Below, one piece after another: positions 39,484-59,214 of a DNA stretch of 64,000 bases. The notes beneath the pieces were generated by a model. It ran no database searches, was not told the origin of the DNA, and saw nothing but the letters and a program-made list of their open reading frames with translations. The stretch lies in NCBI GenBank assembly GCA_023459795.1, contig JAEWSP010000018.1, forward strand, positions 30,946-94,945, in the 5' to 3' direction. Positions within the stretch are counted from its first letter, which is position 1. Every line of letters starts with the position of its first letter. This DNA comes from Bacillota bacterium (GTDB taxonomy: Bacteria; Bacillota_I; Bacilli_A; RFN20; CAG-288). A program made the position numbers and the translations under genes.

Positions 39484-39559
39484 GGATCTTTAGCTCAGTT
39501 GGTAGAGCAACTGACCCTTAATCAGTGGGCCAAGGGTTCGAGTCCCTTAAGATCCACCA
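39484..39559 (+). tRNA. tRNA-Lys (anticodon CTT), 76 nt with encoded CCA
   Basis: Cloverleaf: acceptor GGATCTT/AAGATCC; D-arm GCTC-AGTTGGTA-GAGC; anticodon stem ACTGA/TCAGT with loop CCCTTAA; T-arm AAGGG-TTCGAGT-CCCTT; 3' ACCA. Position 33 is C, which is atypical. Confidence 0.8.
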
Positions 39560-39567
39560 GTGGAAAC

Positions 39568-39597
39568 AGAGAGCTCCCGGAAGGGAGCTCTTTTTGC
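39568..39597 (+). terminator. Rho-independent terminator after tRNA-Lys
   Basis: Hairpin AGAGCTCCC-ggaa-GGGAGCTCT followed by TTTTTG. Confidence 0.55.
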
Positions 39598-39676
39598 TGC
39601 TGTCTATAGAATGCTTAGACTCTTCCAAAAAACGATTTTGAAGGGTAAGGTCTTTGGAATAAGGTATAATTTCAGT

Positions 39677-41035
39677 ATGCTAGTTTTTGATACCATTGCA
39701 GCCCTTGCTACAGCAAATACCAAGGCTGCCTTAAGCATTGTCCGATTGTCCGGAGAGGAATCCCTCCGGATTCTTTCCCATCTGGTAACAAGAGATCCCA
39801 AGACCATCGAACCAAACCATATGTACTACGGCATCCTTTACAGGGATGCAGAAACGAAGGAAGAGATGATCGACGAGGCCGAATATGTTTATTACAAAGC
39901 GCCCCGGTCCTATACCGGTTTTGATGGCGTTGAATTCTTCCTGCACGGAAATCCCCTGATTTCGGAGTCCCTCCTTTCCGCTCTCGTCTTCTGGGGTGCC
40001 AGAAGAGCAGAGCGAGGAGAATTCTCGGCCCAGGCTTATTTCAACGGAAAGATGGATCTCCTCAAGGCGGAAGGAATCAACGACCTTATCAATGCCACCA
40101 GCAAGAGGGCAGTCGATATTGCAAGCAACACTCTTTCCGGCAAGAACTCGGAAGCGATGTCCGGTCTCAAGGCGAGGCTTCTGGAGTCTCTCTCCCAGCT
40201 CGAGTATTACGTCGAGAACCAGTACGAAGACGATGACAGCGATCATTTCCATACGGAGCTGGATAAGGTTGATCTGCAGCTTCAGAAAGAAACAAAGTCC
40301 CTTTTGGAGACTATCCGGAAGACGAAGCAGTCCAACCGGGAATACCAGGGCTTCAAGGTGGCAATCGTCGGAGAGCCCAACGTCGGTAAGTCTACGCTCC
40401 TGAACAAGATCGTCGGAGAAGACAGGGCTATCGTCTCGCCGATTCCGGGAACGACAAGGGATGTCGTAACGGGAGAGAGGGAGATCGACGGAATCCGTTT
40501 CTCTTTCGAAGATACAGCCGGAATAAGGAAAACCAAAGATGTCGTTGAGAACCTGGGGATCGAAAGATCCTACAATACGATCCGGAATGCAGACCTGGTG
40601 CTTCTTTTAAGCGAGTCCGGATTCAAAGAGTTCGAATCCCTTCCGGAAATCCAGGATGCCATCCAAGGCAAACCGGTATTAAGGATTGCCACCAAGAAGG
40701 ATCTCCATGGAGAAAACAAGGAAGCAGACCTGACGGTCTCCGACAAGGAAGACGACATGGCTTCCCTTATTTCCCTGTTCCAGAAGAAGCTAAGCCTGGA
40801 GAACAAGGAAGCTTCCTCCTTCCTCGGAGAAAGGGAAGAGGATCTCCTTATCGAGATCGAAGAACAGCTGGAGAAGACAAGGACTGCTATCCAGGAGACC
40901 CATTCCATCGATGTGGTATCGGATAGCCTGAGAGAAGCGGTCCATACGATCAACTCCCTGATGGGGAAGGACGAGAATGCGACTATGGAAGACATCTATC
41001 AGACTCTCTTCTCCCATTTCTGCCTAGGAAAATAA
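39677..41035 (+). CDS. mnmE: tRNA modification GTPase MnmE (TrmE)
   Basis: G1 motif GEPNVGKSTLLN and C-terminal CLGK. I chose the start at MLVFDT (39677); the track ORF start at 39560 overlaps the tRNA and terminator. Confidence 0.9.
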   Translation: MLVFDTIAALATANTKAALSIVRLSGEESLRILSHLVTRDPKTIEPNHMYYGILYRDAETKEEMIDEAEYVYYKAPRSYTGFDGVEFFLHGNPLISESLLSALVFWGARRAERGEFSAQAYFNGKMDLLKAEGINDLINATSKRAVDIASNTLSGKNSEAMSGLKARLLESLSQLEYYVENQYEDDDSDHFHTELDKVDLQLQKETKSLLETIRKTKQSNREYQGFKVAIVGEPNVGKSTLLNKIVGEDRAIVSPIPGTTRDVVTGEREIDGIRFSFEDTAGIRKTKDVVENLGIERSYNTIRNADLVLLLSESGFKEFESLPEIQDAIQGKPVLRIATKKDLHGENKEADLTVSDKEDDMASLISLFQKKLSLENKEASSFLGEREEDLLIEIEEQLEKTRTAIQETHSIDVVSDSLREAVHTINSLMGKDENATMEDIYQTLFSHFCLGK

Positions 41036-41816: not shown

Positions 41817-42348
41817 GAAGAAGTACTGCTATGTCTGCGAAGGCAAGACAGACGAAGACAGGCTGAAGAAAGCCGGTTGTCTGTTTGTCGTTGTCTCCGG
41901 CGGAAAATTCATCCGCCCGGAGATTTTGTCCTTCCTGTCTCTGGTCTCCAAGAAGCGGAATATAGTTCTTGTCACGGATCCGGATACACCCGGAGATATG
42001 ATCCGGAAGAAGATTGAATCCGTTGTCGGCCCATGCATTAATCTTCACGGGAAGAAGGAACAGGCAACTTATAACGGAAAGCTTGGGATTGCAGAGATGA
42101 GGCAGACCTCTGTAGATGCTCTCCTTGCTTCTTGCATAGAGCATGACAAAGCCATTGAGGAAGAGAGCGGATTCAGCCATGACGACTACCTGGATATGGG
42201 ACTAGAAGGTCTGGGAAGCAAGGAGAGAAGAGAAAGACTTATCAAGAAGTACAGCCTACCTCTTGCTTCCGGTAAGAGCGTCGAAGAAGAATGCCATATC
42301 CTTTCCTTGACCAAGGAAGAGATAAAGGAGGCAATTGCACATGAGTGA
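41806..42348 (+). CDS. rnmV: Ribonuclease M5 (Toprim domain, 5S rRNA maturase)
   Basis: Toprim signature (VVVSGG...VLVTDPDTPGDMIRKKI). Conserved tatD-rnmV-ksgA order. Confidence 0.8.
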   Translation: MDYEKKYCYVCEGKTDEDRLKKAGCLFVVVSGGKFIRPEILSFLSLVSKKRNIVLVTDPDTPGDMIRKKIESVVGPCINLHGKKEQATYNGKLGIAEMRQTSVDALLASCIEHDKAIEEESGFSHDDYLDMGLEGLGSKERRERLIKKYSLPLASGKSVEEECHILSLTKEEIKEAIAHE

Positions 42349-43159
42349 GCAGGATAGAATCCAAGGACTGTTGAAGGAATACGGCTATATCGCCAAGAAG
42401 TCCTTCGGACAGAATTTCCTTATCAACGAAGGAATCATAAGAAGAATCGTCGACCAGATGAAGCCGGAGACTTTCGAGACCGTAATCGAGATCGGTCCTG
42501 GCCTTGGAGCACTGACTCTTCCTCTTTCCCAGAAGAGCAAAAAGCTTTATGCCGTCGATGCAGACAGGGATATGATCACTATCCTCCATGAGATCTTCGA
42601 TTCCAAGAAGAATGTCACCTTGGTCCAGTCCGATTTCCTCCGCTTCGATCCGGACTCTGTCTCCCGGAAGGAAGATAGGCTGCTCATTGGGAACCTTCCT
42701 TACAACATCACTTCCGAGCTTTTTGAATATATGCTTGAAAAAGGGTTTGCTTCTGCCGGTGCCATGGTCCAGAAGGAAGTCTATGAGAAGCTAAGCTATA
42801 CCCCGGGGAAGTCAACCAACACTGCTCTAGGAGCTTTTATCGAAAGCATGGGAAAGCTCTCCCTGCTGACACTTGTCGACCACTCCTCCTTCGATCCTTC
42901 CCCGAAGGTGGAGTCCGCCTTCGTAAGGATTGATACGGATCCGAAGAAGTCGATTTCCTTCTCCCTCTATCCTGTCTATAAGGCACTCTTCCGGAATCCG
43001 AACAAGACCATCCACAACTGCCTCAAGGAGGTGCCGGAATATAGGGACTCCCTTCCTACGCTAAGCCAGGAAAAGCCGGAGCTTCTTTCTTCCAGGGCAC
43101 GGCAACTGGACGTGAAGACACTGCAAAAACTAGCCGAAGAAATCCAGAAGCTTTCCTAG
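42335..43159 (+). CDS. rsmA: 16S rRNA (adenine1518/1519-N6)-dimethyltransferase KsgA/RsmA
   Basis: FGQNFLIN motif and IGPGLGALT SAM-binding motif. Confidence 0.9.
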   Translation: MHMSEQDRIQGLLKEYGYIAKKSFGQNFLINEGIIRRIVDQMKPETFETVIEIGPGLGALTLPLSQKSKKLYAVDADRDMITILHEIFDSKKNVTLVQSDFLRFDPDSVSRKEDRLLIGNLPYNITSELFEYMLEKGFASAGAMVQKEVYEKLSYTPGKSTNTALGAFIESMGKLSLLTLVDHSSFDPSPKVESAFVRIDTDPKKSISFSLYPVYKALFRNPNKTIHNCLKEVPEYRDSLPTLSQEKPELLSSRARQLDVKTLQKLAEEIQKLS

Positions 43160-43364
43160 AACTGTTTTTAGGCGCCAAAGGGAATTAATTTTACCGAAAA
43201 AACCAGTTTCAAAACATTTCCTAACCCTTGGGGATGGTTACTACAGCAAAACAGGGTTGCCTTTGTCGGGAATGACTCTACCCAGTTCGCTTTAAATAAG
43301 CTTGAGTAGCCCATTCCATCTTCGGAAATATGTAGATGATTATACTACTCACCTACCAAGAAAA

Positions 43365-44255
43365 CTAATTAAGGAACTTTTCGCAGTTAAATATATTTTC
43401 TTCATAACTTTGTGTTAACCGGTCTTTCATCTCACCCTCTGTAACTTTTCCGTATTTTCTTTCATAAAGAGAAATTATAGAGGTCATTATTGGAGCGGAG
43501 AAACTTGTCCCACTCTTTTCATTAATAACGATTCCATTCTCACATTCGTCTAAACAGATTATATCTAAGCAGGGTAAAAGAAAACAAGAGGAGTTAAAGT
43601 TTGCTTTTTTCCAAACGTTACATTCCTTATCTATTCCTGAAACAGCAATGACATTTCCATACGCGGCCGGGTACAACAAACTATCTGTTCCGGAATTTCC
43701 GGAACTGGCAACAACAATAATTCCTTTGCTTATGCATCTATCGATGGCAGCCCTAATCAAGCCGGAATCGTTCTTTATTCCTAAAGAAATATTGACTATA
43801 TCAATGCCATATTCACAACAACAATACAATGCGGATTCAACTTCTTGAATAGAGGCAATATTATCTTTACCCTCAACATCAAAAATGTAGATATCAGAAC
43901 AACAAGCCAAACCCAAATTATTGTATTCGGAGCAACCAATTATTGAAAATGTACTTAATCCGTGACTGGAATGTTGCTTACGCTCAACAGTGTTGTTAAA
44001 AACAATGTTTTGATTATGATAAACCGAGTTTTGAATTCCGGAATCTAGGACAGCAATTTTCGGAAAATACACAGCTTTTTCGTTACCTTTGGATAAGTTT
44101 ATTTCTTGCAAATAGTAGGCATTGTAGGGGATACTATTACGGTTTTTTGTTAAGCAGAAAAAGAAAGTACAAAAAACAAGCAGACCGGTTACAAGCTTAT
44201 GCCTTCGCATCTTTTTGATTTTCCGGACCCTGCTTTGCCTTATACGCTTGGACAA
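43365..44255 (-). CDS. Compact membrane-anchored subtilisin-like serine protease (peptidase S8), 296 aa
   Basis: Catalytic triad contexts IAVLDSGIQ (Asp), SSHGLSTFSI (His), NISLG (oxyanion Asn) and GTSFSAPIMTS (Ser). N-terminal TM LVTGLLVFCTFFFCL. No clear SD; the start is uncertain (M1 or M16). Confidence 0.75.
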   Translation of the reverse strand: MSKRIRQSRVRKIKKMRRHKLVTGLLVFCTFFFCLTKNRNSIPYNAYYLQEINLSKGNEKAVYFPKIAVLDSGIQNSVYHNQNIVFNNTVERKQHSSHGLSTFSIIGCSEYNNLGLACCSDIYIFDVEGKDNIASIQEVESALYCCCEYGIDIVNISLGIKNDSGLIRAAIDRCISKGIIVVASSGNSGTDSLLYPAAYGNVIAVSGIDKECNVWKKANFNSSCFLLPCLDIICLDECENGIVINEKSGTSFSAPIMTSIISLYERKYGKVTEGEMKDRLTQSYEENIFNCEKFLN

Positions 44256-44697
44256 ACTTCTTCTTTTTCCGGTATTCGAAAAGAAGAATGATAAAGATAG
44301 CTAATACCGATACGATTTCGACGATATAGCCGGTAACGGAAGAAACGAAGAAGTAGACAAGAGTAAAACTAATCCCTGCCACTACAAAGAAAAAACTGAA
44401 AAGAACGAATCCGTTATTAAAAAGATTCGGATAAGAAAAACTCAGATGGGCATCCTTATTGGATATTTCTTTTGTCGGATACTTTTCTTCTTCTGGCTTC
44501 CCTTTGGAAAAGAAACCAAGTTCAAAGAAGAAGTCTTCATAGCCATAACCAAGAAAGGCAGGAAGGCATAGAATCAGGCTTTTTCCAAAGTACTCCAAAG
44601 ATAAGAACTTTGTGTTTTCCAAGGTAAAACCGTAAACGAGGATTGCCAGGACTACGAATATAGGAGTACAAATCAAACGAAGTTGCCATTTTTTCAT
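44197..44697 (-). CDS. Hypothetical small polytopic membrane protein (166 aa), possible immunity-type protein
   Basis: MKKWQLRL start. About four TM helices and a K-rich C-terminus. Lies between the secreted protein and the S8 protease. Confidence 0.45.
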   Translation of the reverse strand: MKKWQLRLICTPIFVVLAILVYGFTLENTKFLSLEYFGKSLILCLPAFLGYGYEDFFFELGFFSKGKPEEEKYPTKEISNKDAHLSFSYPNLFNNGFVLFSFFFVVAGISFTLVYFFVSSVTGYIVEIVSVLAIFIILLFEYRKKKKFVQAYKAKQGPENQKDAKA

Positions 44698-44699
44698 TT

Positions 44700-45530
44700 T
44701 TATTGAAGTCCAAACGCAAACTGACGTTCCCACGAAAATGAGATTGAAATACCATCTTTAATAAAATGAGAATAGATATAGTCGAAAAGCTCAGATAAAC
44801 AAACAGAGACAAAAAAATTCACAACAAACCTTACTAATGCATGTTCGGATAAAACAGAGATAGCAGAAACGACAGCCAAAATGACAGGATTACCAGTAAC
44901 AGCTCCAAAAAGAGCTAAACTAGCCGCCATAACAATAGGCGTTCTGGTTGCCATAAACAATGCCGTAATTCCTTCAACAATAAACCCTGTCCCATAAGAG
45001 AGAATTTTTCTACAGGTGGAGGCATCAATCTTGAAAACAAATTGATCCGGAACATAAATTCCCCACCAAAGTTTTTTCCAAGTTAAATTGAAGGAATTTT
45101 CCCCTTCGCTTTCTTCTTCAAAACCAGAATACTTAATTAGTGCCGATTCATAGGCATCGATGATTGTGTTTTCTCCAACAAGTTCTGCTTCTTCAGCAGA
45201 AAGCCGGTTTTCCAAAGAAGCAATAACGTTTCTAGAAACATCCAAGAAATAGTTGGATCCTTTTTCATCACATTCAGCAAAGACATTATCCAAACTATTC
45301 TTTGCCTTGGAAATGTTAGATAAGATTTCCTTTCTTGACGCAGGTACTTCAATATCACTAATAGAAAGGTTGGAATAGCAGTCTTCAATTTTATCAAGTT
45401 GGTCCTGAACCTCTTCTTCTTTGGCTGAATTTATTCCAACATTAGTTGGACCTTTGGAATTCTTTCCAAAACATAAAAAACTACTCAATACAGTTATGAT
45501 AGTCAATGCTTTTTTTAATGGCACTTGCAT
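44700..45530 (-). CDS. Hypothetical secreted protein with N-terminal signal peptide and glycine-zipper-like hydrophobic C-terminal region (276 aa)
   Basis: I chose the start at MQVPLKKALTIITVLSSFLCFG, which has a GAGG SD 8 nt upstream. The central domain is acidic and helical. The C-terminal 100 aa or so are rich in small residues with GxxxA patterns (GTGFIVEGITALFMATRTPIVMAASLALFGAVTGNPVILAVVSAISVL). Confidence 0.45.
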   Translation of the reverse strand: MQVPLKKALTIITVLSSFLCFGKNSKGPTNVGINSAKEEEVQDQLDKIEDCYSNLSISDIEVPASRKEILSNISKAKNSLDNVFAECDEKGSNYFLDVSRNVIASLENRLSAEEAELVGENTIIDAYESALIKYSGFEEESEGENSFNLTWKKLWWGIYVPDQFVFKIDASTCRKILSYGTGFIVEGITALFMATRTPIVMAASLALFGAVTGNPVILAVVSAISVLSEHALVRFVVNFFVSVCLSELFDYIYSHFIKDGISISFSWERQFAFGLQ

Positions 45531-45549
45531 ATTTTTTGCCTCGTTGATA

Positions 45550-45578
45550 ATCATAGTGTGTAGATAACTTAAAGTCAA
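45550..45578 (-). promoter_or_regulatory. Sigma70-type promoter for the islet operon (-35 TTGACT, 17 nt, -10 TATGAT on minus strand)
   Basis: Consensus-like hexamers. The predicted TSS is about 12 nt upstream of the ATG at 45530. Confidence 0.45.
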
Positions 45579-45979
45579 TATCGTGTTTTTTGATTACACC
45601 ACTTTTTTGTTCTTGTTATAAATTGTTTTCTAACACAACTGTTTTTTTATAAGAATCGTCTTTGCTTTGTGTTGCACCATGAGAGCAATTGTAAAGCTCC
45701 TCTTTTGGCTTCAAATGCTTTTCTGAGTTTTGCCCCCAAGAAATTTTGCGGTCTGAAAAGAAGCATATGCTGAACATTTTTCGTCAAAAGCTCTAGACAA
45801 AAACAGATTTGCTTTGGAAAGGGCATTCCGCGAACCATTTTCAAAAAGCAACGTCAATTCCAAAACTTAGATGCCAAAAACTTTCTAAGCTCGTCTTCTA
45901 ATTGCTTCTAATTCATTTGAACGCTTTTGCAACCGCCCCTTCATAAACAACCATTTCCGCTCTTTCCAGTAGCTGCGGC

Positions 45980-46885
45980 TTATTCTTCTTTCTTGTTGTT
46001 CTTCTCTGTTTCTTTTTCTTCTTTCTTCTCCTGCTTATGCTTCTGATGCTCTTTGTAGAAATCCTGATCGATCCAGAGGATCCGTTCCGAGAACTCCGGA
46101 TATTTCTTGAATACGAAATAGCTGGAGAGGATGCCGAGAAGCGCACCGCAGGCATCGGCAATGATGTCTCCGTCCGTATCCGTAACAGCATACCTATAGC
46201 CTGTAAATGTCTTGTAGTAATTCGTCATATCCGTCTCGCTGAGGTGGCAGTTCCCCGTATTCCACATCTCTCCGTTTGCTCCCCCGAGAATCCCCGTATC
46301 CTGATCGATGCAGGCATAAAGATCGTCCGGAATATATTTCTGCATGTTCGTATGGAAGATCAGGTCTGCTCCGCCTTCATACAGTTCCCACAAGGCTTCG
46401 ACGGCAACTCCGAAGAAGAAGCCGAAGAGAAGGCATAAGCCGGTCGCTTGTCTTCCTGTATATCCGTTCTTCTTCATGAGAAGCTTCATCAAGACAAAGC
46501 CTGCCAGGGCAAGCTGTGCCGTTCCTATCGTATGGAGGAATTTATCGAATCCGTAATCCCCGAGGTTGTAGTAGACCTGGCAGGCTTCTCCGAGGAAGAC
46601 GGAGACGAAGAGGTCAAAGGCGATGAACAGATCCACTGGCTTTCCGACACGGAAACCAGTCAGATGTTCGACAATCATCGGTCCCCAGATACCTAGGAAT
46701 GCGCAGGAAGACCCGACGATAACCGTCCTTGCCTGGACCGGATCCCACTGGAAAGGACGATGGGTAGCAATGCCGCCTTCCGGATAGAACGGCCTTACCT
46801 TGCAAAGGGATAGGATTGCAAAGACCATGAGCATGGAGAAAACAGAGGTTTCAATGATATACAGGGTCTTTCGGTAAGATGCCAT
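45980..46885 (-). CDS. Hypothetical polytopic membrane protein with KE-rich C-terminus (301 aa)
   Basis: Six or more TM helices. The tail is KEHQKHKQEKKEEKETEKNNKKEE. Normal GC content. Confidence 0.5.
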   Translation of the reverse strand: MASYRKTLYIIETSVFSMLMVFAILSLCKVRPFYPEGGIATHRPFQWDPVQARTVIVGSSCAFLGIWGPMIVEHLTGFRVGKPVDLFIAFDLFVSVFLGEACQVYYNLGDYGFDKFLHTIGTAQLALAGFVLMKLLMKKNGYTGRQATGLCLLFGFFFGVAVEALWELYEGGADLIFHTNMQKYIPDDLYACIDQDTGILGGANGEMWNTGNCHLSETDMTNYYKTFTGYRYAVTDTDGDIIADACGALLGILSSYFVFKKYPEFSERILWIDQDFYKEHQKHKQEKKEEKETEKNNKKEE

Positions 46886-47019: not shown

Positions 47020-47994
47020 CTACTTGACGTACTTGGAGATAATATCGGAGACAGACTTGTTGTTGCTGATGGCATCGATGCAGGCAGCAATGGTCGGAGC
47101 AAGGGAGACAACCGTGATGTTGAGATCCTTGTTCTTCTTGAACCGTTCATCCAGCGGGATGGAGTCCGTGACCCAGAGACGATCGAACGGGCAGGCGCTG
47201 AGACGGGTATAGGCAGGATCGGAAAGGACAGGGTGGACAACAGCCATCATGACCTTCTTGGCACCGAACTTCTTAAGAGCGGCACCGGCAGCAATCGCAG
47301 AACCGGCAGTATCGATCATATCGTCGACGATCAGGCAATCCTTATCCTTGACGTCTCCGACAATGTTCATGACTTCCGGCTGACGGGAGCTGTTACGTCT
47401 CTTATCGATGATGGCAATCGGAGCATCCAGGATCTCCGCAAAGTTGCGGGCGCGGACGACTCCGCCATGATCCGGCGAGACAACGACAAGGTTGGCCTTG
47501 TCGACGCTTTCGTCATGCTTGACGGTATAGCCGAGAAGCGGAACGGCAGTAATGTCATCTTCAAGGCAGGAGAAGAAAGCCTGCTCCTGGGCTGCATGAA
47601 GATTGAAGGTGAGGATACGATCGGCACCGGCAGTGACATAAAGATCAGCAACGAGCTTACTGGAAATCGGCTCACGCGGCTTGGACTTTCTATCCTGACG
47701 GGCATATCCGAAGTAAGGAATGATGACGTTGATTTCGCTGGCAGATGCTCTCTTGAGAGCATCAATGAAGACCAAAGTCTCCATAATATTTTCATTGACC
47801 GGCGGGCAGGTAGATTCGATGATAAATACCCTCTTGCCCCGGACACAGGTCTCTGGGCAGGCCATCACTTCTTTGGACGGAAATACTTCCAGATGTACCT
47901 TCCCTAATGTCGTCCCCAGCTCCTTCGCAACGGCTTCGGCCAGATCGACGTTGGCGCTTAACGCATAGAGAATGGCATCATTACCAAAATTCAT
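47020..47994 (-). CDS. prs: Ribose-phosphate pyrophosphokinase
   Basis: PRPP-binding motifs: VVSPDHGGVVRARNFA and DDMIDTAGS. Confidence 0.9.
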   Translation of the reverse strand: MNFGNDAILYALSANVDLAEAVAKELGTTLGKVHLEVFPSKEVMACPETCVRGKRVFIIESTCPPVNENIMETLVFIDALKRASASEINVIIPYFGYARQDRKSKPREPISSKLVADLYVTAGADRILTFNLHAAQEQAFFSCLEDDITAVPLLGYTVKHDESVDKANLVVVSPDHGGVVRARNFAEILDAPIAIIDKRRNSSRQPEVMNIVGDVKDKDCLIVDDMIDTAGSAIAAGAALKKFGAKKVMMAVVHPVLSDPAYTRLSACPFDRLWVTDSIPLDERFKKNKDLNITVVSLAPTIAACIDAISNNKSVSDIISKYVK

Positions 47995-48188
47995 ATCGAA
48001 AGGTTCCCCCTAACGGAATTATTCTAACACTCTTAGAGTTGGTTTCTAAGACTAATCCGCAAAAGGAGGGAAGCAATCGCTTTCTTTTCCCAAGGGACTT
48101 GAAAGGCAGCTTTTCAGGGAAATAGAATCCGGATCCAGGGGAAGAGAAAAAAGAGGCTTAACAGCAAGAAAATATCTGTTTTGATTTT

Positions 48189-48222
48189 TGAAAAACGAAA
48201 AACAGCCTCCCTTAGGAGGCTG
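48189..48222 (-). terminator. Rho-independent terminator after pgmB
   Basis: Hairpin CAGCCTCC-ctta-GGAGGCTG with a minus-strand U-run. Confidence 0.5.
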
Positions 48223-48225
48223 TGC

Positions 48226-48879
48226 TTAATTCAGCTTGTTTTCTTTTTGAAGGATAGGAAGGATATCGGAAATGCCGACAAGCGGGTAATCTGTCTGATA
48301 GTAGGATGCTGCTTCTTTTACTCCGGCAGTCTTATACCCGCCTTCCTTGGCGGCTTTGATAGCAGAGAACCCATCCTCGACGACCAGGATATCCTTCGGA
48401 GAGAGGACAAGAGCCTTGGCAATCTTGTCGAAGATAACGGAATCATGTCTTGCGACATCAACGTCGTTTCCGTCGACGACCACATCGAAGACATGTTCCA
48501 TCTTGATCTTGGAAAGAATGGTTTCGCAGTTCGTAGATGCTGTTCCGATAGCTACCTTGATTCCGTTCTTCTTCAAAAGCTCAATGGTGGAACGGACTTC
48601 TTCCGGACAGTCCATCTCGGTGAGCTGGGTAAGAAAATTCTGGTAGATAGCATTCTTTTTGTCGGAAATGGCAATTTTCTCTTCTTCCGTGTAGTTCTTG
48701 TTGGCACGCTTTGCCATCAAGGCGACACAGTCCATGCGGTTGGTTCCCCGCATCTGATTATAAACGGAACGGTCAAAAGGGATTCCTTCCTCCTCGGCTA
48801 CGGATTTCCAGGAACGATAATGGTATTCGTCAGTATCGGCAATTACACCATCGATATTAAAAATAACCGCTTGGATCAT
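48226..48879 (-). CDS. pgmB: HAD-family beta-phosphoglucomutase-like hydrolase
   Basis: IFNIDGVIADTDEYHYRSWK motif I, GTASTN, and EDGFSAIKAAKEGG motif IV. Strong resemblance to beta-PGM. Confidence 0.7.
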   Translation of the reverse strand: MIQAVIFNIDGVIADTDEYHYRSWKSVAEEEGIPFDRSVYNQMRGTNRMDCVALMAKRANKNYTEEEKIAISDKKNAIYQNFLTQLTEMDCPEEVRSTIELLKKNGIKVAIGTASTNCETILSKIKMEHVFDVVVDGNDVDVARHDSVIFDKIAKALVLSPKDILVVEDGFSAIKAAKEGGYKTAGVKEAASYYQTDYPLVGISDILPILQKENKLN

Positions 48880-48961
48880 ACCCGATTCCTCCTTCTGAGG
48901 ACCTCAAATTGAGCGACAAATAGATATTTTATCAAGCAAATTGTTGCAACTCAACTTATGT

Positions 48962-49846
48962 TTACTTAACCCAATCCGTAGCAAACTGGGTGAGATAAGC
49001 AAGATTTCCGTCTTTGGAGAAGTTATGCAAAGCATGCTCCAGAAGCTTTTTATCCGTGCTTAAGGCAAAGCAGGCACTTCCGGACCCGGACATTCCGCAA
49101 AGGGGAAGCCCCATCTCCTTCATCTGATCCAATATTTTCTGGATGAGAGGAAGTGCTTTAATTGCCGGGATGGCAAGAACATTGACAAGGTTCTTTTCGA
49201 TAAGGGACTCGTCTCCCTTCTTCAGTCCTTCGATAAGCTGCGCGATATCCGGATGCCGGACAGTGGCAGGATCAACAAGGTCGTATGCCTGATAGACGCT
49301 CTTGGTAGAGAGTCCGTACGGAGGTTTCACGATAAGGACATAATACAGGGTCTTCACGGAAATCGGAGAAAGCACTTCTCCGACTCCTCCAACCCGGGAA
49401 GGGAGATTGCGGAAGCAGTAAGGAACGTCCGCACCGACAGAAAGAGCAAGCTTGTTGATTTCCTCCTTGCTGCTAGCAGACTTCGGGAAGGCAGGCTCAA
49501 AAGCCCGGAAGATTGCAGCCGCGTCTGCACTTCCTCCGCCAAGTCCGGCTTCCACCGGAATCTTCTTATAAATAAAAATCTTGAACCTTCCGGTGTCGCT
49601 GCAATGTTTCTTCATGACATCGAGTGCCTTGTAGGCAAGGTTCGATTCATCGCAGACAATGCTAGGATCGTCACAGTAAAGATAAGTATCCTGGGTCTCT
49701 CCCGGGATCCTGGAAATTTCAATCGAATCATGGAGCTTGAGAGGAATCGTCACCATATCGATGTTGTGGTATCCATCTTCTCTCTTGCCTAGAACGTCCA
49801 GCGCTAAGTTAATCTTTGCTAAGGCACGAATCACTAGGGTATTCAT
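48962..49846 (-). CDS. ispE: 4-diphosphocytidyl-2-C-methyl-D-erythritol kinase (GHMP kinase)
   Basis: AKINLALDV N-terminus and GHMP motif PVEAGLGGGSADAAA. I chose the start at MNTLVIR (49846). Confidence 0.85.
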   Translation of the reverse strand: MNTLVIRALAKINLALDVLGKREDGYHNIDMVTIPLKLHDSIEISRIPGETQDTYLYCDDPSIVCDESNLAYKALDVMKKHCSDTGRFKIFIYKKIPVEAGLGGGSADAAAIFRAFEPAFPKSASSKEEINKLALSVGADVPYCFRNLPSRVGGVGEVLSPISVKTLYYVLIVKPPYGLSTKSVYQAYDLVDPATVRHPDIAQLIEGLKKGDESLIEKNLVNVLAIPAIKALPLIQKILDQMKEMGLPLCGMSGSGSACFALSTDKKLLEHALHNFSKDGNLAYLTQFATDWVK

Positions 49847-49953
49847 AGATTTATGTCCTTTTCGGGTTTTCAGCGTACCTATTATAACTTTTTTCTTTCT
49901 TGGTAAGTAGAGTACAAGAAACAAGAAAGAAAATAGTTATAATAAAAGGGACC

Positions 49954-55814: not shown

Positions 55815-58115
55815 ATGAGTAATAGAAAACGTACCGCCTTTGCCGGGCTTCTCTTTTCTGGTTTGCTTTTGATGACATCCTGCTCCTTAAACGCTTCCCG
55901 AGGCTCTACCTCTTCTTCTACCTCCTCTACTTCTGGCGCCCCTTCTACTTCCAGTAAAAAAGCTTCTGCAATCCAGATCGTTCCACCGGATAAGAAAGAA
56001 TACCGTAGAGGAGATGCCTTTGACATTTCCGGTCTTTCTGTTTCTTTGGTTTACGAAGATGGGACCAAAGAAGCAGCAAGCGACTATACCCTAACTTTTT
56101 CCGAAACGGGAGAAGAGATTGCTAACGGCGATATCCTGGATTACGAGGATGGAACCCATACGATCACAGTAGCCGTTACAGGAGTCGGATTTGCCAGCTT
56201 TGACATCTCGACCTGGACAGCAACTCCAAAGAGCAGATACCTGGATCTTACTTCTCTTCCGACAAAGACCATCTATATTGTCAAAAACCAGGAAGCTTTC
56301 TCTTCGGAAGGCCTGGGCGCTATTTATACCGTAATTTTCCAGGGATACCTGAACGGAGTCAAGAAAACGGAACAAAAGGATACGACTGTTACCGATCTTG
56401 TTACCTTCAGCATAGATGGAAAGACTCTTTCCGAAGGAGATGTTTTCACCGTAGATGATTACGGAACGAAAGCCGTAACCGTTACTTATTCAGAAGACGG
56501 AAAGACGGTCACAGCAGTTTTCTATATCACAATCGTAAGCGGAGACACGGCTCCGAAAAAATATACGGATACAACAAATCCCATCGTCACCGGTTCGAAT
56601 ACGATCAAGCTGACCATCACCAATCCCAACTCCGCTCATACGACCGGAACCAACAACTACATCGCTCCCGATGATGTAGATGCAACGAAGTACAGCATCC
56701 CTAACTACTATGCCAAGAAGAATTATGAAAACTGGCGTTACCTTCCGACAACCGGAAAGGTTCCGCTTTTGATTGTTCCGGTATTCTTCACGGATCAGAC
56801 TCAGTATGATACAACGGCAAACAGGGATCTGATGAAGAAGTGCTTCTTCGGAAAGAGCACGGACCTGAATTTCGAATCCCTGCATTCGTATTACTACAAA
56901 TCCAGTTACGGAAAACTGGATTTCACCGGCTCCATTGCTCCTTCTTTCTATCCTCAGGTCAGTATTCCTGCCCTGCAATCCACTTCTACGGAGTCTTTCA
57001 GCGAGGCATCCATGTTAACTATGCTGACCGCTCTTCCGGATTACCTGAAGACCCTTGGATATGATCTCACTCAATATGATTCCGATTCTGACGGATATTT
57101 GGATAGCGTCTGGATGATATACGGACACAGCACGGAAGCAAGCTCCACCTCCAACTGGTGGGCTTATTCCTCGACCCTTTCTGTGATCCCCGCAAGCGTA
57201 GCTTCTCCGACCGTCAACAACTTCGGATGGACTTCCTTTGATTTCCTCAATGATGACTTTAGCGGAGGTTCCTCTATTGCAAATGCCGGAGGAGATGCCC
57301 ACGTCCTGATCCATGAAACCGGACATCTTCTCGGCCTCTCGGATTATTATTCCTACTATTCCTCGACCTACGATCCTCTTGGCGGATACGATATGATGGC
57401 CTATAACGTCGGAGATCATAATCCTTATTCCAAACTCCTTTATGGTTGGGTGGATCCTTACCTCGTATACGGAAACAGCACCATCACCCTCAGCCTCAAT
57501 ACCAAAAACAATCACCAGGTCGTCCTGATTCCATATGATTCCAAAGACTACAGCGATACAAAGTATCAGGAAACCATCCAAAACGCAGACGGAACAACCT
57601 CAACGAAGACCTGGGTGAATCCCTATGATGAATATATGATTCTGGATTTCTACACGAACGCCAACATGGACAGCCAGTCCTATGACTGCTATGGGTCTGC
57701 TCCGATTAATGGAACCGGCGTTAGGATATACCACGCCGATCACCGCCTTTTCAAAGCCTCCGGTATTATCACCACCGTAACCGAATACTCAAATCCGGAT
57801 GCTCCTCTTTCCACAACGGATCTAGTAAATGCAGCAATCAATAATTCGGAAGGCGGCGATAGAGCCGAATCCGGTTTCGGGCTTCCTACCAGCTACGATG
57901 CCTTTGATGAACTCCGTTTGATAGCTAAGGACAAGTCTATCTTGGACCTGAATGCAACACAGAAAACCTATAAGGGTGATTCCACTGCTCCTTCCGTCCT
58001 CTTCAAAGCCGGCAGTTCCTTCTCTCTTTCTTCCTACTCTGCTTCCTTCCCGAAGACAACGACATTCAACAACGGCAAATCCTTCAGCTACAATATCTCC
58101 TTCTCCAACAACTAA
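55815..58115 (+). CDS. Large surface lipoprotein with zinc-metalloprotease motif HEXXHXXGXXD (M6 immune-inhibitor-A-like / M7-like), 766 aa
   Basis: Signal peptide plus lipobox (LLLMTSC). The N-terminal region is S/T-rich. HVLIHETGHLLGLSDYY motif. GGAGG SD. I chose the start at 55815. Confidence 0.65.
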   Translation: MSNRKRTAFAGLLFSGLLLMTSCSLNASRGSTSSSTSSTSGAPSTSSKKASAIQIVPPDKKEYRRGDAFDISGLSVSLVYEDGTKEAASDYTLTFSETGEEIANGDILDYEDGTHTITVAVTGVGFASFDISTWTATPKSRYLDLTSLPTKTIYIVKNQEAFSSEGLGAIYTVIFQGYLNGVKKTEQKDTTVTDLVTFSIDGKTLSEGDVFTVDDYGTKAVTVTYSEDGKTVTAVFYITIVSGDTAPKKYTDTTNPIVTGSNTIKLTITNPNSAHTTGTNNYIAPDDVDATKYSIPNYYAKKNYENWRYLPTTGKVPLLIVPVFFTDQTQYDTTANRDLMKKCFFGKSTDLNFESLHSYYYKSSYGKLDFTGSIAPSFYPQVSIPALQSTSTESFSEASMLTMLTALPDYLKTLGYDLTQYDSDSDGYLDSVWMIYGHSTEASSTSNWWAYSSTLSVIPASVASPTVNNFGWTSFDFLNDDFSGGSSIANAGGDAHVLIHETGHLLGLSDYYSYYSSTYDPLGGYDMMAYNVGDHNPYSKLLYGWVDPYLVYGNSTITLSLNTKNNHQVVLIPYDSKDYSDTKYQETIQNADGTTSTKTWVNPYDEYMILDFYTNANMDSQSYDCYGSAPINGTGVRIYHADHRLFKASGIITTVTEYSNPDAPLSTTDLVNAAINNSEGGDRAESGFGLPTSYDAFDELRLIAKDKSILDLNATQKTYKGDSTAPSVLFKAGSSFSLSSYSASFPKTTTFNNGKSFSYNISFSNN

Positions 58116-58118
58116 AAA

Positions 58119-58158
58119 GCAAATCATCCTGACCGGCTGGTCAGGATGATTTTTGTTT
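58119..58158. terminator. Bidirectional terminator between convergent metalloprotease and DUF368 genes
   Basis: 14-bp stem AAATCATCCTGACC-ggc-TGGTCAGGATGATTT followed by TTTGTTTG. It overlaps the DUF368 stop codon. Confidence 0.55.
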
Positions 58159-59214
58159 GTCTTTTTTGTCTCCTAGCTTCACCAGAAGCACAGAGATAAT
58201 TATTCCAAGAGCAAGGAACGGAATTCCAAGAGCGGCATCTACGATTTCTCCCCGGGTAAGTGCACCTGTATCCTGAATCTGGAAATACCATTTCATATAG
58301 GCATCGATGAAGACTTCCCTGGAACAGAACATCATCAGGATAGAACCTAAAGACAGACCGACGATGGCTTCATTGGTAAGCTGCCTGTGCTTGCTGAAGC
58401 AATGATCCACCAGAACATTCGTAAAGAAGAATCCAAGAGCAAAGCCGACACCTAGAAGAGCATATATTACAAAGATAAGAGGATGAATAACCCAGTACCC
58501 AATATGTACTGTGTCTAGAATTCCGGAATAGATTCCGATCATCATGCAGAAGGCACTTCCGCTAAGGCCAGGAACAACCTGGGTAAGACCGATTACCATA
58601 CCGATTGGAGCAATCAATAGATATAGGGAAACAGGATAGGTAGTTCCAAATGCCTGGTCCGCTTTTTCATAAAGGGTAGATGAGGAATCAATGACTGGAC
58701 GCTGGAAGATCTCGCTGCGAGTAAAATACAAAGTCAGGAAACAGATAAGAGCAGGAATCAGGAGTCCTAAAACCATCATCAACCAATCCTTGGATTGTTT
58801 CTTATAACCTTTAATATTCCTCTGCAAAACGGGGAAGGAACCAATCATCAATCCGGCAAAGAGAAGTATGGTCGAAAATGGCAGTACCTTAAGCAGGGCT
58901 TGCAACCCAAAAAGACCGGCCAGAAATCCAATCGCGTTTCCAATATAAGTGGGAAGAAGGAAAAGGAAGCAGCGTTTGAAATCTTTAAAAATATGAGCAT
59001 TGGCATAAACGATCTTGTCGTACAAGCCAAAGACCATCATCAAAGCAGGAGAACTGACTCCCGGAATAATTGCAAATAGCCCCATAGCGACTCCCAAAAG
59101 CATGGCGTGGAAGAAACCTTTCCGATCATATTTGACAAAGTCGAATGTGTTAGAGTTTTCTTGTGGTTTTTCCATTACTTTATCTTCCTTTTTTCGATAG
59201 AACTTATTATACAT
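58141..59214 (-). CDS. DUF368-family membrane protein (putative polyprenyl-phosphate transporter, UptA/PopT-like)
   Basis: Two internal repeats with the PG(V/L)S motif (IIPGVSSPALMMV and VVPGLSGSAFCMM). Ten or more TM helices. Confidence 0.7.
   Translation of the reverse strand: MYNKFYRKKEDKVMEKPQENSNTFDFVKYDRKGFFHAMLLGVAMGLFAIIPGVSSPALMMVFGLYDKIVYANAHIFKDFKRCFLFLLPTYIGNAIGFLAGLFGLQALLKVLPFSTILLFAGLMIGSFPVLQRNIKGYKKQSKDWLMMVLGLLIPALICFLTLYFTRSEIFQRPVIDSSSTLYEKADQAFGTTYPVSLYLLIAPIGMVIGLTQVVPGLSGSAFCMMIGIYSGILDTVHIGYWVIHPLIFVIYALLGVGFALGFFFTNVLVDHCFSKHRQLTNEAIVGLSLGSILMMFCSREVFIDAYMKWYFQIQDTGALTRGEIVDAALGIPFLALGIIISVLLVKLGDKKDKQKSS

Follow-up and report, generated by a model that had tools for sequence, protein, structure and literature searches.

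A foreign, strain-variable three-gene operon beside ksgA in a CAG-288 bacterium, possibly a protease-processed toxin-immunity module

We have analysed a stretch of 64,000 nucleotides from a Bacillota bacterium of the CAG-288 lineage (GenBank assembly GCA_023459795.1, contig JAEWSP010000018.1, positions 30,946 to 94,945 of the forward strand), hereafter the window, and in it a low-GC islet at window positions 43193-45925. The islet is a foreign, strain-variable and dispensable accessory operon. Its three genes lie on the minus strand and encode, in the order of the predicted transcription, an exported toxin-like protein (gene 1, 44700-45530), a small membrane protein (gene 2, 44197-44697) and a serine protease of the S8 or subtilisin family (gene 3, 43365-44210). 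We tentatively read the islet, with confidence that falls a little short of even, as an acquired antagonism module in which a membrane-acting toxin is processed by a protease and countered by an immunity protein; toxicity, immunity, cleavage and the cleavage site are what we infer in this reading.

The base composition of the islet is foreign. Its GC content is 0.361 as compared to 0.482 +/- 0.025 in 558 other 2.7-kb windows, none of which falls below 0.40, and GC at third codon positions is 0.28-0.41 in the islet as opposed to 0.54-0.63 in ksgA, prs and other flanking genes. This bears out the AT-rich islet between housekeeping flanks that had been described in a first-pass annotation made from the sequence alone. 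The islet contains three genes only and is flanked, as that annotation had it, by ksgA on the left (42341-43159, plus strand, convergent with the S8 gene) and by a membrane-protein gene on the right, which proves to be DUF2238-like (45980-46885, minus strand) and is followed further on by prs. Neither relevant flanking direct or inverted repeats nor tRNA attachment sites nor mobility genes were found around the islet, which for the mobility genes agrees with the earlier description. The KsgA protein itself reaches 64% identity at most, to Candidatus Enterosoma and other uncultured gut Bacilli, which we take to be members of the RF39 group. An ENA scaffold of 129.7 kb matches the window at 100% identity.

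Synteny, which had been suggested as a check, gave a clear picture: in five related genera the 10 kb beside ksgA hold none of the three islet genes, and two contigs of the same species with the same KsgA protein (L038, L045) carry the module in decayed form. These contigs align to the window up to position 43192 and again from 45958, and in between only 44219-44706 is kept. Lost are 43193-44218 with the S8 gene and 44707 to approximately 45925 with gene 1 and its promoter, and what is left of gene 2, at 95% identity, is frameshifted and misses its start codon. The segment that differs between the intact and the decayed allele defines the islet, exactly at its left edge and to about 30 bp at its right edge. 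It includes two non-coding parts that are absent from the decayed allele, namely an AT-rich spacer upstream of the operon (45579-45925) and a 3' untranslated tail that extends from the S8 stop codon towards ksgA (43193-43364). The junctions of the decayed allele retain a 15-nt internal fragment of the S8 gene (14 of 15 positions identical) and the last approximately 10 nt of gene 1, which indicates that this allele arose by loss from a full module and not by insertion into an empty site. The intact form, on the other side, recurs: the contigs that bear an identical S8 protein number at least 20, come from different samples and all show it in the same context.

A sister lineage has the whole module at the equivalent place. 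The number of substitutions per synonymous site (dS) between the two lineages is 0.08-0.13 in the module and 0.10-0.18 in the flanks, and by this similarity the acquisition predates the split of the lineages. The ratio of nonsynonymous to synonymous substitution rates (dN/dS) is 0.34 for gene 1, 0.24 for gene 2 and 0.25 for gene 3, as compared to 0.05-0.08 for ksgA, prs, tatD and ispE; by this measure selection on all three genes is purifying, though relaxed. The upstream spacer evolves neutrally, with 44 of 457 positions different and frame-breaking indels of 1 nt among them, and in the same comparison neither islet spacer holds a conserved small open reading frame (ORF). On a shorter time scale, five strains of about 99.4% identity (L009-L013) show 2 variable sites in 2.6 kb of the islet and 13-16 per kb in ksgA, rnmV, tatD, mnmE, prs and the membrane gene. 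A gene-specific sweep or a recent spread by recombination may explain this low variation, though the sample is biased because the contigs were picked via their identical S8 protein.

The three co-oriented genes are as tightly packed as had been described, with a gap of 2 nt between genes 1 and 2 and an overlap of 14 nt between genes 2 and 3 that implies translational coupling. A predicted sigma-70-type promoter, TTGACT-17-TATGAT (45550-45578, minus strand), matches the consensus at 10 of 12 positions and is the best in the region. The near-consensus promoter of the first-pass annotation thus stands as a match to the consensus only, given that 9 promoter-like sites were found in the region where 7.3 are expected by chance; the sister lineage has TTTACT-17-TATTAT at the equivalent position. 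A Shine-Dalgarno sequence, GAGG (45539-45542, minus strand), lies 8 nt before the ATG of gene 1 and reads GGAGG in the sister lineage, and with promoter and GAGG so placed the leader would be about 13 nt long. Taken together, the single strong promoter match, the 2-nt gap and the 14-nt overlap predict that genes 1 to 3 form one transcription unit. A scan for intrinsic terminators gave none behind the S8 gene in 43193-43364, Rfam gave no match for the upstream spacer or elsewhere in the islet, and the spacer contains no remnant of the TetR genes that adjoin the cassette at other loci described below.

Gene 1 encodes 276 amino acids from its ATG and is predicted to begin with a Sec-type signal peptide (residues 1 to approximately 22). 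The remainder divides into an acidic, helical and poorly conserved N-domain (residues 26-136, window 45123-45455; net charge -11, mean pairwise identity 28% across the family) and a conserved C-domain of about 140 amino acids (residues 138-276, window 44703-45119; mean pairwise identity 48%), for which three hydrophobic helices with short strands on either side are predicted. AlphaFold2 models residues 35-132 as helices and not as sheet, with low confidence. A glycine zipper, which had been proposed for the hydrophobic region, is not borne out, as gene 1 has one GxxxG and the family shares no [GAS]xxxGxxx[GAS] position. The protein matches no model of Pfam, NCBIfam, PHROGs or PADLOC, and a word-indexed search of 5.8 billion proteins returned gene 1 itself alone. 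Collections of viral contigs, phage records and plasmid records yielded no relative, and the sole match of a sequence-profile search of the PDB is a weak coiled coil on the N-domain (CHMP1a, E = 0.007).

Relatives of gene 1 were found by exhaustive HMMER search of 1.84 billion representative sequences (four, E 1e-19 to 3e-15) and a subsequent profile search (five more), giving a family of roughly ten members from at least five distinct cassette types, all on metagenome contigs. In the family alignment (A2) the C-domain residues G143, L154, W155, P161, F164, A170, C173, R174, L207, T212 and G213 are invariant, and an S-E-G motif is conserved at residues 139-141, near where the two domains meet. 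The contigs that bear the homologues have a GC content of 29-39% throughout, which matches the composition of the islet and suggests a donor of that kind. In every locus with readable downstream DNA a small gene for a protein of 125-158 amino acids with multiple transmembrane (TM) segments directly follows or overlaps the gene 1 homologue, and these partner proteins are homologous to each other (BLASTP E 1e-27 to 1e-4, computed without composition correction). By these comparisons gene 1 belongs to a new family whose members are in every case accompanied by a small multi-TM gene.

The surroundings of the relatives are likewise those of accessory genes. TetR regulators adjoin three of the cassette types. 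Between strains of about 97% identity of another low-GC species we find a 3.2-kb presence/absence deletion (L031 5270-8449, as compared to L035 and L034) that takes a TetR gene, a gene for a coiled-coil protein of 474 amino acids and, of the toxin-like gene, the 5' two thirds. The deletion strains keep the membrane gene of 151 amino acids intact, next to a toxin remnant that has acquired a stop codon, and this variant resembles an orphan immunity gene.

At another locus (L024 1-8863, also L025) an N-terminally truncated gene 1 homologue of 142 amino acids and a membrane partner of 144 amino acids lie directly downstream of a defence island composed of Hachiman (HamA and helicase), an EcoRII-type endonuclease together with a DNA methylase, and DRT4, a reverse transcriptase (PADLOC 3e-215). 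Could the module then act against phages, with genes 1 and 2 disrupting or guarding the membrane upon infection, in the manner of superinfection exclusion, and the protease as sensor or activator? The company of DRT4, the EcoRII-type restriction-modification pair and Hachiman speaks for it, as does the strain-variable nature of the cassette, and defence systems with S8 proteases exist. That of the window gives weak PADLOC matches to subtilase and IetS models (7e-7 to 1e-3). However, these matches are generic, owing to general S8 similarity, and for genes 1 and 2 neither PADLOC nor PHROGs gave a match. Moreover, the copy beside the defence island is the truncated one, phage and plasmid collections hold no relative, and Sec export of gene 1 and of the protease points outward and not to an intracellular trigger. 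We therefore regard an anti-phage role as improbable.

Gene 2 encodes 166 amino acids and is, by hydropathy and position, the presumed immunity partner. It had been described as a four-TM protein; its membrane nature is upheld, with clear hydrophobic segments at residues 8-26, 96-114 and 121-139, while a fourth near 40-58 is weak. Neither gene 2 nor the members of the gene 1 family have a meaningful match in Pfam, NCBIfam, PHROGs or PADLOC, and no islet protein matches a Pfam bacteriocin or immunity family.

Gene 3 belongs to the S8 family by its match to PF00082 (1.3e-23). It encodes 281 amino acids from its ATG and attains the previously given length of 296 only from an upstream TTG at 44255; the complete catalytic set and the N-terminal anchor or signal of the first-pass annotation hold. 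In an alignment to subtilisin BPN' the residues D56, H83, N172 and S236 (codons at 44043-44045, 43962-43964, 43695-43697 and 43503-43505, minus strand) correspond to D32, H64, N155 and S221, and the protease is thus predicted to be competent. The PF00082 match starts at about residue 50, right after a hydrophobic N-terminus that may be a signal peptide or a membrane anchor, and no I9 prodomain is present. With its catalytic domain in this position the enzyme is exported or membrane-tethered. Its 281 residues include 15 cysteines with CC and CCC runs, which is unusual for an exported enzyme. Besides the identical copies its nearest relative among 5.8 billion clustered proteins has 33% identity, and other relatives stand in contexts that are not toxin-like, in a phage-tail-like block (P0016) and beside SLH-domain proteins (P0004).

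Sub-threshold NCBIfam scores of the protease to PatA/PatG (57 bits, cut-off 421) and QhpE (79.5 bits, cut-off 165), together with its compact size, could be taken to mean that it is a leader peptidase of the LanP, ElxP or PatA type, which matures a small precursor of a lanthipeptide or another peptide that is made on ribosomes and modified after translation. The analogy to LanP and ElxP had been drawn in the first-pass annotation and is not sustained: neither the islet nor its immediate flanks carry LanB, LanC, LanM, radical-SAM or ABC-peptidase genes, the 450-bp upstream spacer and the 3' tail hold no conserved small ORF, and no Rfam match or family of that peptide type was found. For lack of precursor and modification genes we reject this reading and consider it very improbable. 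A subtilase of germination or sporulation (CspBA/CspC type) was rejected as well, since no Csp-type NCBIfam model matches at E <= 1 and the context is a foreign operon. Nor do the other explanations that the annotation had set against its own proposal apply, as the three genes are not conserved core genes of related genomes and gene 1 matches no known surface protein.

Among described systems, a class of toxin systems with a protease of their own comes closest to the islet. The S8-PTS class was described by Li, Tan and Zhang in 2022 (PMC9424270) and has since been characterised experimentally under the name of ABP systems by Colautti et al. in 2025 (PMC12582261) and Mwangi et al. in 2026 (PMC13556192), with a review in PMC13460014. 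ABP systems are tricistronic and consist of a prodomain-less, Sec-exported S8 protease, AbpP, a Sec-exported toxin, AbpT, and AbpI, an immunity protein located in the cytoplasm; AbpT combines an acidic BetaH domain with a cationic enzymatic toxin domain, and a single cut by AbpP frees an amphipathic helix responsible for entry into the membrane of the target (PMC9424270, PMC12582261, PMC13556192, PMC13460014). That a cognate, co-exported S8 protease activates a secreted toxin has been shown experimentally in these systems (PMC12582261, PMC13556192). The BetaH domain is a seven-stranded sheet wrapped round a helix and is represented by NCBIfam model NF038340 (SAR2788 family).

By analogy, we propose that the islet was acquired horizontally and would serve as a dispensable competition module that is transcribed as one operon. 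Gene 1 would yield a Sec-exported pro-protein, whose acidic, fast-evolving N-domain precedes the conserved C-domain, and the C-domain would insert into membranes and damage them. Gene 2 would shield the producer's own membrane as an immunity protein. The S8 protease, recruited in this lineage and exported together with its presumed substrate, would separate the two domains of the pro-protein by a cut near the S-E-G motif, and this cut would release or activate the membrane-active part, by the mechanism shown for AbpP and AbpT.

The islet and the ABP systems indeed have much in common. Both are small, mobile and strain-variable three-gene operons with a compact S8 protease that has an export signal and no I9 prodomain, both encode a Sec-exported toxin or toxin-like protein in which an acidic N-terminal part is followed by a hydrophobic or amphipathic helix, and in both a protective or presumably protective gene lies downstream. 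The window protease thus shows what marks the protease of an ABP system, linkage to a toxin-like gene in one operon, an export signal and the absence of a prodomain, and its best database matches (30-34% identity) include canonical AbpP enzymes. The AbpP enzymes encoded by plasmids of Priestia megaterium, B. thuringiensis and B. cereus adjoin annotated SAR2788-family (BetaH) toxins, and as a positive control the gene after the B. benzoevorans S8 gene matches NF038340 at 1.3e-19.

Then again, the differences are substantial. The ABP toxins have a BetaH domain and gene 1 has none: neither gene 1 nor three further members of its family match NF038340 at E <= 1, and comparison of the gene 1 family profile with an AbpT profile gives an hhalign probability of 0.1%. 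The C-terminal part of gene 1 is a hydrophobic membrane domain, whereas that of AbpT is a cationic enzyme of the nuclease type. The presumed immunity protein of the window is a multi-TM membrane protein, whereas AbpI is cytoplasmic, and the AbpI candidates at the canonical loci that we examined have no hydrophobic segments of the gene 2 kind. The gene order of the window (toxin, immunity, protease) differs too, AbpT is always accompanied by a protease whereas the toxin-like family of the window is usually found without one, and the reports of ABP systems come from Bacillales and Actinobacteria and not from RF39-like lineages. In a neighbour-joining (NJ) tree, which is small and not decisive, four canonical AbpP enzymes cluster with an enzyme of B. 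altitudinis, while the window protease is placed elsewhere on a long branch, together with P0008, P0016 and P0018 at 70% bootstrap support. Similarly, on a profile of four AbpP sequences the window protease attains 126 bits, whereas subtilisin BPN' (212 bits) and the majority of the other S8 proteins tested score higher. Membership of the window protease in the AbpP clade was rejected on these two grounds. On paper the module would thus work like an ABP system without being a member of that family, and the earlier statement that it fits no described class needs to be qualified, since in S8-PTS/ABP a described class has this architecture.

The enzyme of B. altitudinis just mentioned, a prodomain-less S8 protease of 277 amino acids, is the best BLAST match of the window protease (111 bits, 32% identity). 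It is encoded by the 8.4-kb mobilisable plasmid pPOD2000 (NZ_CP101939.1; L049 1799-4319), where this AbpP-like gene lies between genes for two Sec-signal proteins with acidic N-terminal and hydrophobic, Ala/Gly-rich C-terminal parts, neither of which matches the BetaH model. This single and anecdotal locus may be another non-canonical S8-associated toxin locus. Its S8-flanking proteins have no detectable homology with gene 1 (hhalign probabilities of 1.3% and 0.1%), and more generally gene 1 has no homology to the genes that adjoin the closest S8 relatives, those of B. benzoevorans and B. altitudinis. In addition, the pPOD2000 locus differs from the window in that its protease groups with AbpP and that it has no annotated small multi-TM gene.

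Membrane-acting toxins of other kinds offer a second comparison. According to the reports on TspA/TsaI, TelE and EsxX of Gram-positive bacteria (PMC7456083, PMC10434224, PMC12744356), each of these toxins acts on membranes through a hydrophobic domain at its C-terminus, as proposed for gene 1, and a small polytopic membrane protein encoded next to it serves as immunity; their loci are polymorphic and can bear orphan immunity genes, traits that loci of the gene 1 family appear to share. The same reports give TspA, TelE and EsxX N-termini of the LXG or WXG type, type VII secretion and, for several of them, the need for a conserved glycine zipper. Gene 1 is unlike them in having a Sec signal peptide and no conserved glycine zipper, and by Pfam and NCBIfam it has no similarity to membrane-depolarising toxins. 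A locus of a type VII secretion mycosin with its membrane toxin was rejected in view of the score of the protease to TIGR03921 (70 bits, cut-off 279), the absence of type VII secretion genes among the called neighbours of the islet and the Sec signal peptide. Bacteriocins such as closticin 574, an antimicrobial peptide of Propionibacterium jensenii that is activated by protease, and SdpC of Bacillus subtilis are made from large Sec-exported pro-proteins, in which a signal peptide and a long, dispensable pro-region precede a hydrophobic active part at the C-terminus that is activated by proteolysis, and the immunity protein of the Sdp system, SdpI, is a membrane protein. Their active peptides comprise 40-80 amino acids, and the conserved domain of gene 1 is larger, at about 140. 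To our knowledge none of them has a dedicated S8 protease in its operon.

Several of our observations weigh against a released, protease-activated toxin with gene 2 as its antidote. The C-domain of gene 1 has a net charge of -4 and is slightly acidic, unlike cationic membrane-active toxins, and the structure models of gene 1 are too poor to judge whether it has a pore-forming fold. Gene 2 has no detectable homology with the partner proteins of the other loci (hhalign probability 3.5%) and resembles them in position, size and topology only. Since the presumed immunity gene is lost too in the decayed allele, its retention is not enforced in this species, and the orphan membrane gene of 151 amino acids in the other species differs between strains by 5-6 codons, too few for demonstrating selection. 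Finally, a tblastn search (E <= 0.01) of 15 related loci found no S8 gene at a distance of up to 8 kb from the toxin-like gene, so that the toxin-like protein does not generally need a dedicated protease.

A further point of this kind concerns the hydrophobic helices of gene 1, whose Kyte-Doolittle mean is near 1.9. Such helices in a Sec substrate normally become membrane anchors in the producing cell, and gene 1 may be a resident membrane protein and not a released toxin. It would then be an integral protein with a cleaved signal peptide, a helical ectodomain and three C-terminal TM helices, which together with gene 2 forms a surface, adhesion or envelope module with no part in antagonism and whose ectodomain is shed or trimmed by the S8 protease. 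The TM-like hydrophobicity is what such a protein should have. However, conflict genes more typically than envelope components vary in presence between strains, have a foreign composition, adjoin TetR genes, occur in defence islands and show a raised dN/dS, as is the case here, and a membrane domain that is conserved next to an exposed domain that varies fits a pro-region and an active domain better than an adhesin. We consider a resident complex unlikely, though one of the main alternatives to the toxin-immunity reading.

But why would the toxin-like gene be accompanied by a protease here when its relatives do without one? The absence of S8 genes within 8 kb of the other family members argues that the protease is an add-on at this locus and not a core part of the cassette. 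On this point the first-pass proposal of a toxin-like module has to be amended; the accessory operon, the recurrent pairing of an exported with a small membrane protein and the ABP precedent speak in its favour. The add-on might even be an unrelated passenger, transferred and transcribed together with genes 1 and 2 and acting on other substrates, with genes 1 and 2 as a self-sufficient toxin-immunity or membrane pair. That all other family loci are devoid of an S8 gene, and that neither tree nor profile score ties the protease specifically to AbpP and its clade of toxin-activating enzymes, are in support of this notion. Against it stand the overlap of 14 nt with gene 2, the shared atypical GC and GC at third codon positions and the similar dN/dS, the loss of the protease together with gene 1 in the decayed allele, and an export signal that would bring the enzyme into the compartment of the gene 1 product. 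A passenger role thus seems rather unlikely to us, and we retain the protease as the presumed processing enzyme of the toxin-immunity module.

A broader proposal goes beyond this locus and is correspondingly more doubtful. Gene 1 might found a family of Sec-exported, membrane-attacking protein antibiotics of uncultured low-GC gut Bacilli, each with a membrane immunity protein, and in the lineage of the window a dedicated S8 protease would have been recruited independently as an activating switch; such a system would be convergent with ABP/S8-PTS, lack BetaH and carry a non-enzymatic warhead that targets membranes. We think this less likely than not.

The wider neighbourhood of the islet has some features of its own. 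The ispE-HAD-prs block (window 47020-49924) is on the strand opposite to ksgA, whereas in three more distant relatives (L006-L008) ksgA, ispE and prs follow each other on one strand; because of this difference in strand order the islet would lie at the junction of an inversion or rearrangement. The DUF2238-like membrane protein on its right has a Lys/Glu-rich low-complexity C-terminal tail, KEHQKHKQEKKEEKETEKNNKKEE (window 45980-46060), and its start varies between the gene calls of different contigs, giving 284 or 301 amino acids. On the other side, tRNA-Lys(ctt) at 39484-39559 abuts a 491-amino-acid GTG reading frame of mnmE (window 39484-39677), which is probably over-extended, since most gene calls on identical contigs start later and give 452 amino acids. 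The second-lowest GC content of the window (0.40-0.42) is found at 57300-62677, where dnaA (59744-61135) and dnaN (61523-62677) lie with AT-rich spacers; their presence places the window about 15 kb from the replication origin.

ABP/S8-PTS systems were shown experimentally only in 2025-2026 and have so far been defined by BetaH domains, enzymatic warheads of the nuclease type and cytoplasmic immunity. If the alternatives weighed above are right, the region is a strain-variable membrane-protein cassette with no assigned role and of modest interest. If on the contrary the islet is a protease-processed toxin-immunity module, the pairing of an exported toxin with an S8 protease of its own would have arisen more than once, and the search for such systems would widen beyond genome mining that is based on BetaH. 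The three genes are small, depend on Sec export only and lend themselves to direct testing in a heterologous Gram-positive host. Such a module would also open an initial way into the study of interbacterial antagonism among RF39-like gut Bacilli, a group without cultured representatives.

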